A stretch of DNA of 64,000 nt from Escherichia coli (GTDB lineage: Bacteria; Pseudomonadota; Gammaproteobacteria; Enterobacterales; Enterobacteriaceae): assembly GCF_013122565.1 (NCBI RefSeq), contig NZ_CP053258.1; one strand, given 5' to 3'. Made by a program: the position numbers. Positions 48,001 to 51,000 of the stretch are shown here, one piece after another (positions within the stretch are counted from its first letter, which is position 1; every line of letters begins with the position of its first letter).

Positions 48001-51000
48001 TTGCCCATGCCAGCCACGATAAACCACTGGCTAAGCCGACAAAAAAGCTGGCATGTCGTAATAAATCCACCCGTTCCTGGAGAGGCAGCACTCCGGTAAA
48101 ATCTTCGGCCCCCCATGGAATATGATTCCAGACAAAGCTATTGCCTGTATGAGCATTGCGGTCAATACACAAAACCCGATACCCAAGTTTCTTTAAATGA
48201 CTAATCACTTCAGACCATCCAAGACCATTATTCCAGTGTTTCGCCTGTGCTGTAGACTGCACGGCAATACAGACATAAGGGTCAGGGATTTTCCTTTCAG
48301 CTGAAAGATTGAGTCGGGGTGGTTCTTCCTGAGGAGATACTCCCAGGATATATCCGGCATTACGATGAAAACCAACCAGACGGAAATCTACAGGCTGGTT
48401 ATCTGTATCTCCATTAAAAAACAAACCAATTCTGTACGTTGCATATGGTTTACCTTCATATTTATCCTGAGTTGCTGTAAACTTTATTTCCGGATAATTA
48501 TCTGAGAATAGTGTTACGAACTCTTCACTAACGGAGCATTCCAGTTTGCATTGATGTTTTATACGGAATTTTTCAGCGTAGTGAAACCATGCAATAATAT
48601 CTCCCAGCGTTCCTGTCGGAAATGATATTAAAACATGCTTACTCTTCAGGTTCATTACAGTGTCAAGGCAGGGGTGAACTTCTCCTTTTTTAAATGCCTG
48701 CACCCTAAACTTCACATAATATTTTTTTGTGCTTGTTACCCACCCTCCAGACGTATCGCATGAAAATAAAATATTTCCTGAATCATCATCAATGATATTA
48801 ACATGCCACTCGCCTTTCGGAAGCAAAACTCTTGCTCCATCATTAAAATCATACAGAATACCTTTATCTCCTTCTTGGGTTGGAGTTCCTGTTAATGATA
48901 CAAAAGCCATATGATTCTCTCCTGAATTATAAATTGTTCTTGGAGTAGCAATGCCTGATACGAATGGAGAAAGATGTTGTATATATTAGCGATATATCAT
49001 TCATCTTCTTGACGATTGAGAGAGGAAACTTTATTAACTATAATGTGATTTTAATTGTTATGAGTAAAATGGAACATATCTTTTTCTGAAAGATGAAAAC
49101 CATCAATTCTTTTTATCTACCTTTAACTGAAGCGGTCTAGTAATATTGGCCACGGTTTTACAGTAAGAACGGTATCTGTTCTCTGATTCTTCCGGCATCA
49201 CCCCCCCGTCGGCTAGCAGATTCGGCAGGCCGGTATGCTCCTGGCGTGCGTTTTTGTACTGATGTTTTCCGGGCTGACAACTGCTCAGGTTCAGCTATTT
49301 CATCAGCCCACGGCACGATAATGGCTCATCAGGATGCCATTTTGAGTCAGTATATCTGTCAGAGTGCGCGCACCTGCGGAACCCCGACTCTGGTTCCAGG
49401 CCCGGCGTATTTCGCTATACAACCTGACTCGCGCCGGATCAATGGTATCGCGCCGCTTCTGCCAGTACCGGTAACTGCTGCGATGTACGTCCAGAGCAGC
49501 ACAAAGGCTGACAACCGTGTAGCTGCCGCTCAGTCTGGTAACTATCGTAAACCGTTCAGCGAGTCGGACATCAAGAGCGAGGTAGCCTTTTTTAATCTCG
49601 TATTGGCACTGTGTGCCAGTATTGAAATCCACGAAATAACTTACTTACCAAGTTTCTACATATCCCGTGTGGTTTGTGGATTCACTGAGTTTTGTTTGTC
49701 AGATAATGCACAATCGTTATCCAGAATTTTTGCAGACATATTTCGTTCTACCAAGAGCCGGCAAATCTCTGCGTGCTTCTCCTCAGTGAAGGTGAAGAGA
49801 GACATAAAGGCTATTCGGATCAGTGAGCCTATTGCAGGTAGCAGACAAATCCCGAAGAACAGACCCGATAGCACGCTTTCTTTCTGGATTTGTTCTTGCG
49901 GCACGTAGTCAATCATCGTCAGGAATACACCTATGAGCCCGCCGCCAACTGCAACCGACATCTTGCCGGTAAAGGTTTGTCCGGAGAAGGTGATTGCCGC
50001 GCAGCGTTTGTGGGTGTGATACTCCGCGTACTCAATGGTGTCAGCAATCATTGACGAGGTGAGAATGTTGGTCATCATCACAAAAAGCGTACTTAGACCA
50101 AGTAGAATAAACAGTATTGTCACCTGTTGATATCCAACCACCCACATCACCAAGCGTACCGAGACGTCTAGTCCACAGAGGATCATAAACAGCTTCCGCT
50201 TCTGCATCCGGCGTGTCAGCATCGGCGAGATCAGGCATAACATTGCTGCTAAAATCCCCATAACACCAATAGCCATCTGCAGGCTGCCATCTCCCAGATT
50301 ATTGATAAAGAAGTAGATATAAAGCCCGCCTGCCACGTTGTGGAATACGCAGAAAAAGAACGACAGCAAAACTATAAATAGCGGCTTGTTTTGACGCAGG
50401 TTATAGAAGGTGTCGCGAATAGTTACCTTTTCCGGGCTTGGCGGCACGCGCTCTTTGATCTGTACAAAGCCGTTTAGCATCAGTGGCAGGCCTACTAGCA
50501 TCATTATCAGCGCAGCCATAAAGTAACCCTTATCGTCGCTGTACTGGGCGAAGAATGCCGCTAGTTTTGGGAAAAAGATATTGGCGCAGGCAATCCCGAC
50601 GTTTACCCCGAGCATCGCCGCAGTGACAACACGGACACGCTGAGCGGAGTCATTGGTCATCACCGATGACATCGACCAGAACGGGATATCGGAGATAGCA
50701 TATAGCGTCCCCCATAGAATGTAGGTTACCCCGGCATAGAGAATTTTTGTGGTCATGCTCGCATCGATTTTATAGAAAGAAAGCAGCGTGACACCTGTGA
50801 TCAACAGTGGAGCGATCAGTAAAAAGTGACGAAATTTACCGAACCGACTGTTAATAATATCCATAATGCTAGCAAAAAGAGGATCGTGAACTGCATCCCA
50901 TGCGCGGGCGATCAGAAAAATTGTGCTTGCCGCCAGCGCCGAGATCCCCAGCACGTCAGTGTAAAAATAGTTAATAAACGAACCCACTAAGCCAAAGCTA

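Follow-up and report, generated by a model that had tools for sequence, protein, structure and literature searches.

The DNA analyzed here is a stretch of 64,000 nucleotides from Escherichia coli (assembly GCF_013122565.1, contig NZ_CP053258.1), which as a whole is referred to as the window. It contains a mosaic island that reads, in order, hipBA, a solitary terminus of an insertion sequence (IS), the aah-aidA operon encoding an AIDA-I-type adhesin and a heptosyltransferase, the remnant of an IS3-family element, an Enterobacter-type sugar cassette and the tcu operon. The remnant is the subject of this study. The first-pass annotation, made from the sequence alone, had placed an IS3-family transposase fragment at 49140-49655, on the border between the adhesin operon and the sugar module. 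We found that the IS-derived DNA instead extends from 49128 to 49604 on the minus strand, and that 49605-49655 is a spacer without IS homology. With high confidence, we regard 49128-49604 as a non-functional relic of an IS3-family element that is related to, but distinct from, an ISEc31-like IS of 1258 bp. This confidence applies to the whole of the explanation developed below, i.e., the identity, anatomy and inferred history of the relic, the seam and the later deletion.

One intact IS copy of 1258 bp (L002) was used as the reference, and the remnant was mapped by pairwise alignment to it. The ends of the reference, TGTAGTGGCACAC… and …GACCACTACA, were fixed by copies of 99.9-100% identity in two contexts and by a 92.8% identical copy in a third. 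Reference-type ends have the form TGTAG...CTACA, and four reference-type copies in different contexts each showed a 3-bp target duplication (AGT, ACA, TAA and ATA). Alignment and frame translation against this reference gave the following features.

49128-49604, minus strand: IS-derived DNA as a whole
49604-49215, minus strand: internal piece, reference 322-712, 87% identity; tail of OrfA, frameshift window and N-terminal HTH_21 region of OrfB
Within 49604-49215, minus strand: reference 322-614 at 86% identity and reference 621-712 at 93.5% identity
49604-49542, minus strand: last 20 codons of OrfA and its TAG stop, by frame translation against the reference OrfA tail
49593-49587, minus strand: slippery heptamer A AAA AAG of the -1 programmed frameshift that links OrfA and OrfB, identical in the reference IS
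About 49306-49311, minus strand: lesion in OrfB, a net deletion of 1 nucleotide, by alignment and frame translations
49297-49295, minus strand: lesion in OrfB, TAT changed to a TAG stop, by alignment and frame translations
49214-49211, minus strand: 4-nucleotide filler AGCC in place of reference ~713-1175 (~463 bp), which is absent
49210-49128, minus strand: 3' terminal piece, reference 1176-1258, 88-89% identity; last ~27 codons of OrfB and the right inverted repeat (IRR)
49128-49153, minus strand: IRR of 26 bp; 23 of its 26 positions agree with the reference IRR, and 100 shuffles gave no match
Absent from the window: reference 1-321, comprising the left inverted repeat (IRL) and most of orfA

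The intact 1258-bp IS matched the window in BLASTN over 391 bp (87% identity, E 6.7e-135) and over a further 82 bp (89%, E 3e-25). In a megablast search of 5,426 complete E. coli genomes, thousands of loci annotated 'IS3 family transposase' were matched at 85-87% identity, each in two pieces that span ~945 bp in the subject as compared with ~485 bp in the window. The same two-piece pattern was obtained with the 72,556 plasmids of PLSDB, in which the best nucleotide identity was ~87% and the matches lay on plasmids of many Enterobacterales. At the protein level, the frame-repaired translation scored 32.8 bits (E 8.3e-8) with Pfam HTH_21, above the gathering score of 28.1, and NCBIfam NF033516 ('IS3 family transposase') was matched at E 1.1e-20; the 74 bits of the latter stay below its full-length cut-off of 160 bits because only profile positions 86-206 of 369 remain. 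In strain LHM10-1, the same DNA is annotated in RefSeq by the Prokaryotic Genome Annotation Pipeline (PGAP) as 'IS3 family transposase, incomplete, missing N-terminus and C-terminus'. These data bear out the IS3-family assignment of the first-pass annotation, and the lack of a significant match to a known IS, which it had named as grounds for giving the assignment up, did not arise. A chance open reading frame (ORF) or an unrelated sequence without IS origin appears virtually impossible, as the one observation in its favor, the sub-threshold HTH_21 score of a raw 109-amino-acid ORF (23.4 bits against the cut-off of 28.1), is opposed by the nucleotide homology to an intact IS, the thousands of IS3-family matches in genomes and plasmids, the NF033516 match, and the retention of both the IRR and the slippery site. 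The relic is already known as a pseudogene in RefSeq relatives; what is added here is only its corrected anatomy and a base-level map of the seam.

The anatomy of the remnant differs in several respects from what had been noticed at first. No OrfA had been reported; we found that its last 20 codons, its stop codon and the slippery heptamer survive, with the OrfA tail in frame 0 and OrfB in frame -1, matching the reference, whose coding sequence is annotated 'programmed frameshift'. No obvious terminal inverted repeats had been noticed, which holds for the IRL, since no match within 3 mismatches was found anywhere in the window, but not for the IRR. The latter, read on the plus strand from its outer end (49128) inward, is TGAAGCGGTCTAGTAATATTGGCCAC; it starts with TG, its outer end abuts the aah upstream region, and the right flank of the relic is GTT on the minus strand. 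Two candidates for a hidden IRL were rejected. The 8-mer TGGCACAC, located in the spacer (49605-49660 searched) and shared with the reference IRL, lies at the wrong offset, and a TGTAG that overlaps the stop codon of the adjoining transporter gene is part of 'GGGAYATGTAG', which is native to the Enterobacter sugar cassette. In agreement with the first-pass annotation, no full OrfB is present: ~127 N-terminal and ~27 C-terminal codons survive, parted by the ~463-bp internal deletion, in addition to the 1-nucleotide deletion and the TAG stop. Translation of the three minus-strand frames showed the OrfB-like sequence breaking frame after …HYRAVG and then carrying on. The rve domain corresponds to residues 135-232 of the reference OrfB, and the deletion takes residues ~128-281, hence the whole DDE catalytic core. 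The DDE (rve) domain of the IS3 family is thus absent from the remnant and present in its intact relatives, indicating decay of the relic rather than non-membership of its ancestor.

Having no catalytic domain and only one end, the relic neither makes a transposase nor can be mobilized, and no function is expected of it. The ~110 codons that first drew attention correspond to the following ORF, which does exist as a mechanical reading frame, but the homologous OrfB sequence consists of the two stretches of codons described above.

49303-49632, minus strand: mechanical ORF of 109 amino acids, from the ORF list, with a GTG start and its end at the frameshift lesion

It is conceivable that this ORF encodes a helix-turn-helix protein domesticated from the N-terminal part of the transposase, e.g., a regulator or an inhibitor of transposition, as it is open for 109 codons, contains an HTH_21-like region and shows 100% conservation in two out of three sister assemblies. 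However, this conservation reflects the near-clonal identity of the whole 6.4-kb region, and the first 9 codons of the ORF, with the GTG start, lie in the non-IS spacer. A promoter scan found no promoter-like site for it on the minus strand, its end is set by the frameshift lesion, and a later deletion (see below) cuts it at 49340 in 11 of 11 derivative loci (L001 and L010-L019). No identical protein was present in a search of 5.8 billion proteins, in which the best match was 83-85% identical. Domestication is therefore highly unlikely, and the ORF should be called a pseudogene. A terminator scan found no terminator on the minus strand, which is also the strand of the adjoining transporter gene, and an Rfam scan of 48900-49800 gave neither a frameshift element nor another RNA at E<=1. 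The -35-like hexamer of the reference IRR, TTGACC, is TAGACC in the relic, and, in view of the junction promoters of the IS3 family, an outward hybrid promoter driving aah would accordingly seem to have no support. On the opposite strand, a 220-amino-acid ORF (49246-49908, plus strand) runs antisense through the relic and the 3' end of the transporter gene, and is almost certainly spurious.

The closest relative of the relic is an IS3-family element of 1258 bp found on E. coli chromosomes and on IncF plasmids (NZ_CM129855.1, 2489174-2490431; NC_010488.1, pSMS35_130). It is colinear with the relic in the OrfA tail, the A AAA AAG heptamer, the HTH_21 region and C-terminus of OrfB and the IRR, at 86-93% nucleotide identity per block, and shares the architecture of the inverted repeats, with TG...CA ends and a AATATTGGCCAC core. 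In contrast, the overall identity reaches only ~87% for nucleotides and ~80-85% for protein, and the differences are biased to third codon positions. The terminus is TGTAGTGG in this element and TGAAGCGG in the relic, and the relic lacks the IRL, most of orfA and the rve core. Relatives of 85-86% nucleotide identity carry the PGAP label 'IS3-like element ISEc31 family transposase'. By the ISfinder convention, two copies belong to the same IS at roughly >=90% nucleotide or >=95% amino acid identity; the relic shows 85-86% nucleotide identity to the 'ISEc31 family' copies and 87% to the best intact IS, and so lies outside ISEc31. No closer parent IS, above ~87% nucleotide or 85% amino acid identity, was found among the complete E. 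coli genomes, the PLSDB plasmids and the 5.8-billion-protein set. In the two blocks of the internal piece (IS 322-712), 30 of 47 differences from the reference fall at third codon positions, which means that most of the 13% divergence predates inactivation and arose in a functional, distinct IS lineage rather than through decay at this site. The relic thus goes back to a separate isoform, at present unsampled, and did not arise by decay of a reference copy. IS911, which we take to be a well-studied relative within the IS3 family, has the same design of two ORFs with an A AAA AAG frameshift, a TGAAG-type terminus and a transposase with helix-turn-helix and DDE parts; the protein identity to an 'IS911 transposase orfB' entry (P0038) is only 53%. 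In the literature on ISEc31 and on IS-flanked aah-aidA, we found only surveys that list ISEc31 and nothing specific to this locus.

The border named in the first-pass annotation was confirmed, and its two sides could be placed to the base. On the adhesin side, 44128-49127, with the aah-aidA operon, is 93-96% identical to AIDA-I plasmids of porcine enterotoxigenic E. coli, and the aah upstream region (48600-49127) is 94-95.5% identical. This homology stops at 49127, directly against the IS terminus (49128). The relic IRR lies 217 bp from the aah start codon, on its upstream side. The sequence shared with the plasmids ends …CCTTTAAC; it is followed in the window by the IS terminus TGAAGCGG… and in the plasmids by A-TGTAGAGGGGG…, where another IS3-family element begins, oriented the other way. 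The aah-aidA modules of plasmids p48B2a (NZ_CP128583.1) and ETEC1730 (NZ_CP122834.1) have the same segment limits as the window copy, with IS3-family termini directly at both. They differ from it in that the window copy is chromosomal, and in that the plasmids carry an intact, oppositely oriented IS that starts 1 bp away from the same junction, as well as a 59-67-bp IRL-end remnant beside the aidA terminator, 20 bp from it. We considered whether the latter could be the rest of an ISEc31-like element and rejected this, as a terminus 100% identical to it occurs in 4,740 of the 5,426 E. coli genomes, its identity to reference/ISEc31-type copies is only 83-84%, and it belongs to a different, very common IS3-family element. 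Thus, the adhesin operon is always bounded by IS3-family ends, which are different ones in different replicons. In two of the AIDA plasmids, the different intact IS3-family element, with the start TGTAGAGGGGGAG…, occupies 7529-8790 (L003) and 7529-8750 (L004), 1 bp from the position of the relic-terminus junction, which suggests a hotspot or IS-end targeting upstream of aah. A near-consensus sigma-70-like site (TTGAGA-17-TATAAT, 11/12) is located at 49016-49044 on the plus strand, within the region upstream of aah, and the AIDA plasmids share it as a conserved feature. It faces away from aah and reads into the relic in the window and into the IS transposase gene in the plasmids.

On the sugar side, the cassette comprises genes for LacI, a GH5 protein (cellulase family) and a major facilitator superfamily (MFS) transporter (GPH symporter), and occupies 49656-53405, with 83.6% nucleotide identity to Enterobacter asburiae. 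Homology was detected by BLAST over 49664-53405 and extends, by eye, to the MFS stop codon at 49656. The MFS transporter adjoining the relic showed 92% protein identity to E. asburiae, its other closest homologues also being from Enterobacter, and its gene was present in only 6 of the 5,426 complete E. coli genomes. The neighbors of the cassette in E. asburiae and other Enterobacter are different genes, and homology of the tcu module (tcuR) in other E. coli starts at 53406. Between the relic and the cassette lies the spacer.

49605-49655, no strand: orphan spacer of 51 bp that separates the truncated IS from the MFS stop codon, without homology to the reference IS

We found no counterpart of the spacer in the reference IS, in four Enterobacter-type contexts, or in E. 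coli beyond the 6 related genomes. A palindrome, TGGCACTGTGTGCCA, flanked by direct CAATAC repeats, is located at 49604-49618. Taken together, these comparisons show that the relic sits on a seam between modules that were acquired separately.

A second IS terminus was found at the far edge of the adhesin operon.

44100-44125, minus strand: solo IRR-like terminus TGTAGTGGCCAAGTAATATTGGACAC; 24 of its 26 positions agree with the reference IRR, where chance would give no match

It ends 2 bp before the plasmid homology and is oriented like the IRR at 49128, to which it is identical at 21 of 26 positions. One possible explanation is that the two termini are what is left of two IS copies in direct repeat, which as a composite-transposon-like unit carried aah-aidA from a plasmid to the chromosome. 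Both termini are ISEc31-like, they bracket exactly the plasmid-homologous segment, and AIDA plasmids also have IS3-family ends hard against both segment edges. However, the IS remnants flanking the segment on the plasmids are of other IS3-family types, with one common terminus and one in the opposite orientation, and between the two termini of the window 5 of 26 positions are different; the outer IRL that would have belonged to the right copy is gone, hence there is no flanking target duplication to compare. We regard such a carrier as a doubtful option. Equally tentative is its extension, in which the relic and the terminus at 44100-44125 would be the ends of an IS3-bounded unit that moved aah-aidA from plasmids to a hipBA-proximal chromosomal hotspot, the parent IS being an extinct or unsampled lineage ~13% diverged from ISEc31-like elements.

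The arrangement of the window recurs at 99.9-100% identity in three other assemblies (L020-L022), indicating that it is not an assembly artefact. A shorter form appears to be more common. For the MFS protein, the collection has 457 indexed blocks; a junction joining 46050 to 49340 was present in all 10 of the contexts that were examined (L010-L019), as it was in the LHM10-1 locus (L001). In the 5 other complete genomes with the MFS gene, the 100% match begins at the same base, 49340. The pseudogene of LHM10-1 (E1J55_RS11325) is 100% identical to the window over 49340-49800 and likewise adjoins the MFS transporter gene, but is shorter, since a deletion of 46051-49339 took 49128-49339 of the remnant, and with it the IRR. 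In the window, the IS homology is unbroken across 49340, and 44128-49127 is colinear with the AIDA plasmids, which together indicate that the window represents the ancestral form and the common form a deletion derivative. In the derivative, aah is gone, as are the 5' portion of the adhesin gene and one third of the relic, and no notable microhomology was found at the breakpoints. A further junction, 44005 to 44772, with 44006-44771 missing, was present in 8 of the 10 contexts and in the LHM10-1 locus. The hipA flank (43000-44005) is ~97% identical to hipA-linked relatives, as compared with 99.4-100% for the adhesin/IS/MFS DNA (44772-49700), and several relatives have entirely different DNA to the left of 43784, with defence genes, IS elements and phage-like genes. 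The region beside hipBA looks like a recombination and integration hotspot.

The homology, the anatomy, the limits of the modules and the derived deletion are direct results, and from them we infer the following order of events. An intact IS would initially have been present beside the aah-aidA operon, with its IRR 217 bp from the aah start codon. It may then have lost its left end together with most of orfA (321 bp), subsequently the ~463-bp internal block encoding the DDE catalytic core, and finally have gained the frameshift and the stop codon. What is left now serves only as a scar at the joint of the plasmid-derived adhesin module and the Enterobacter-derived LacI-GH5-MFS cassette. A later deletion of 3.3 kb (46051-49339), with one breakpoint inside the relic, has destroyed the adhesin operon in most related strains. 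Some points weigh against this account. The parent IS has no curated name and its nearest relatives reach only 85-87% identity; the account does not cover the 51-bp spacer; the differences between the two IRR-type termini mean that these are not recent copies of one element; and a direct role of the IS in moving aah-aidA, or its participation in the joining of the modules, is no more than a possibility, with the IRL missing and thus no target-site duplication that could be checked. We nevertheless prefer the reading of 49128-49604 as an IS3-family relic on a module seam. The relic is an ordinary genomic scar that matters little beyond bookkeeping. Its use lies in giving a base-level map of the mosaic island, and in showing that the window holds the intact, rarer ancestral form of a chromosomal AIDA-I-type adhesin locus, which is deleted in 11 of 11 related loci examined, including the 6 complete genomes with the MFS gene. 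This should help in reconstructing the spread of this adhesin operon.

At the far end of the sugar cassette, a sharp seam is located at 53405/53406, between the cassette and the tcuRABC module, and the tcuR homology in other E. coli is often on plasmids. The first ~126 bp on the tcu side (53406-53533) showed a 91% match to unannotated DNA of F-type plasmids and K-12 strains.

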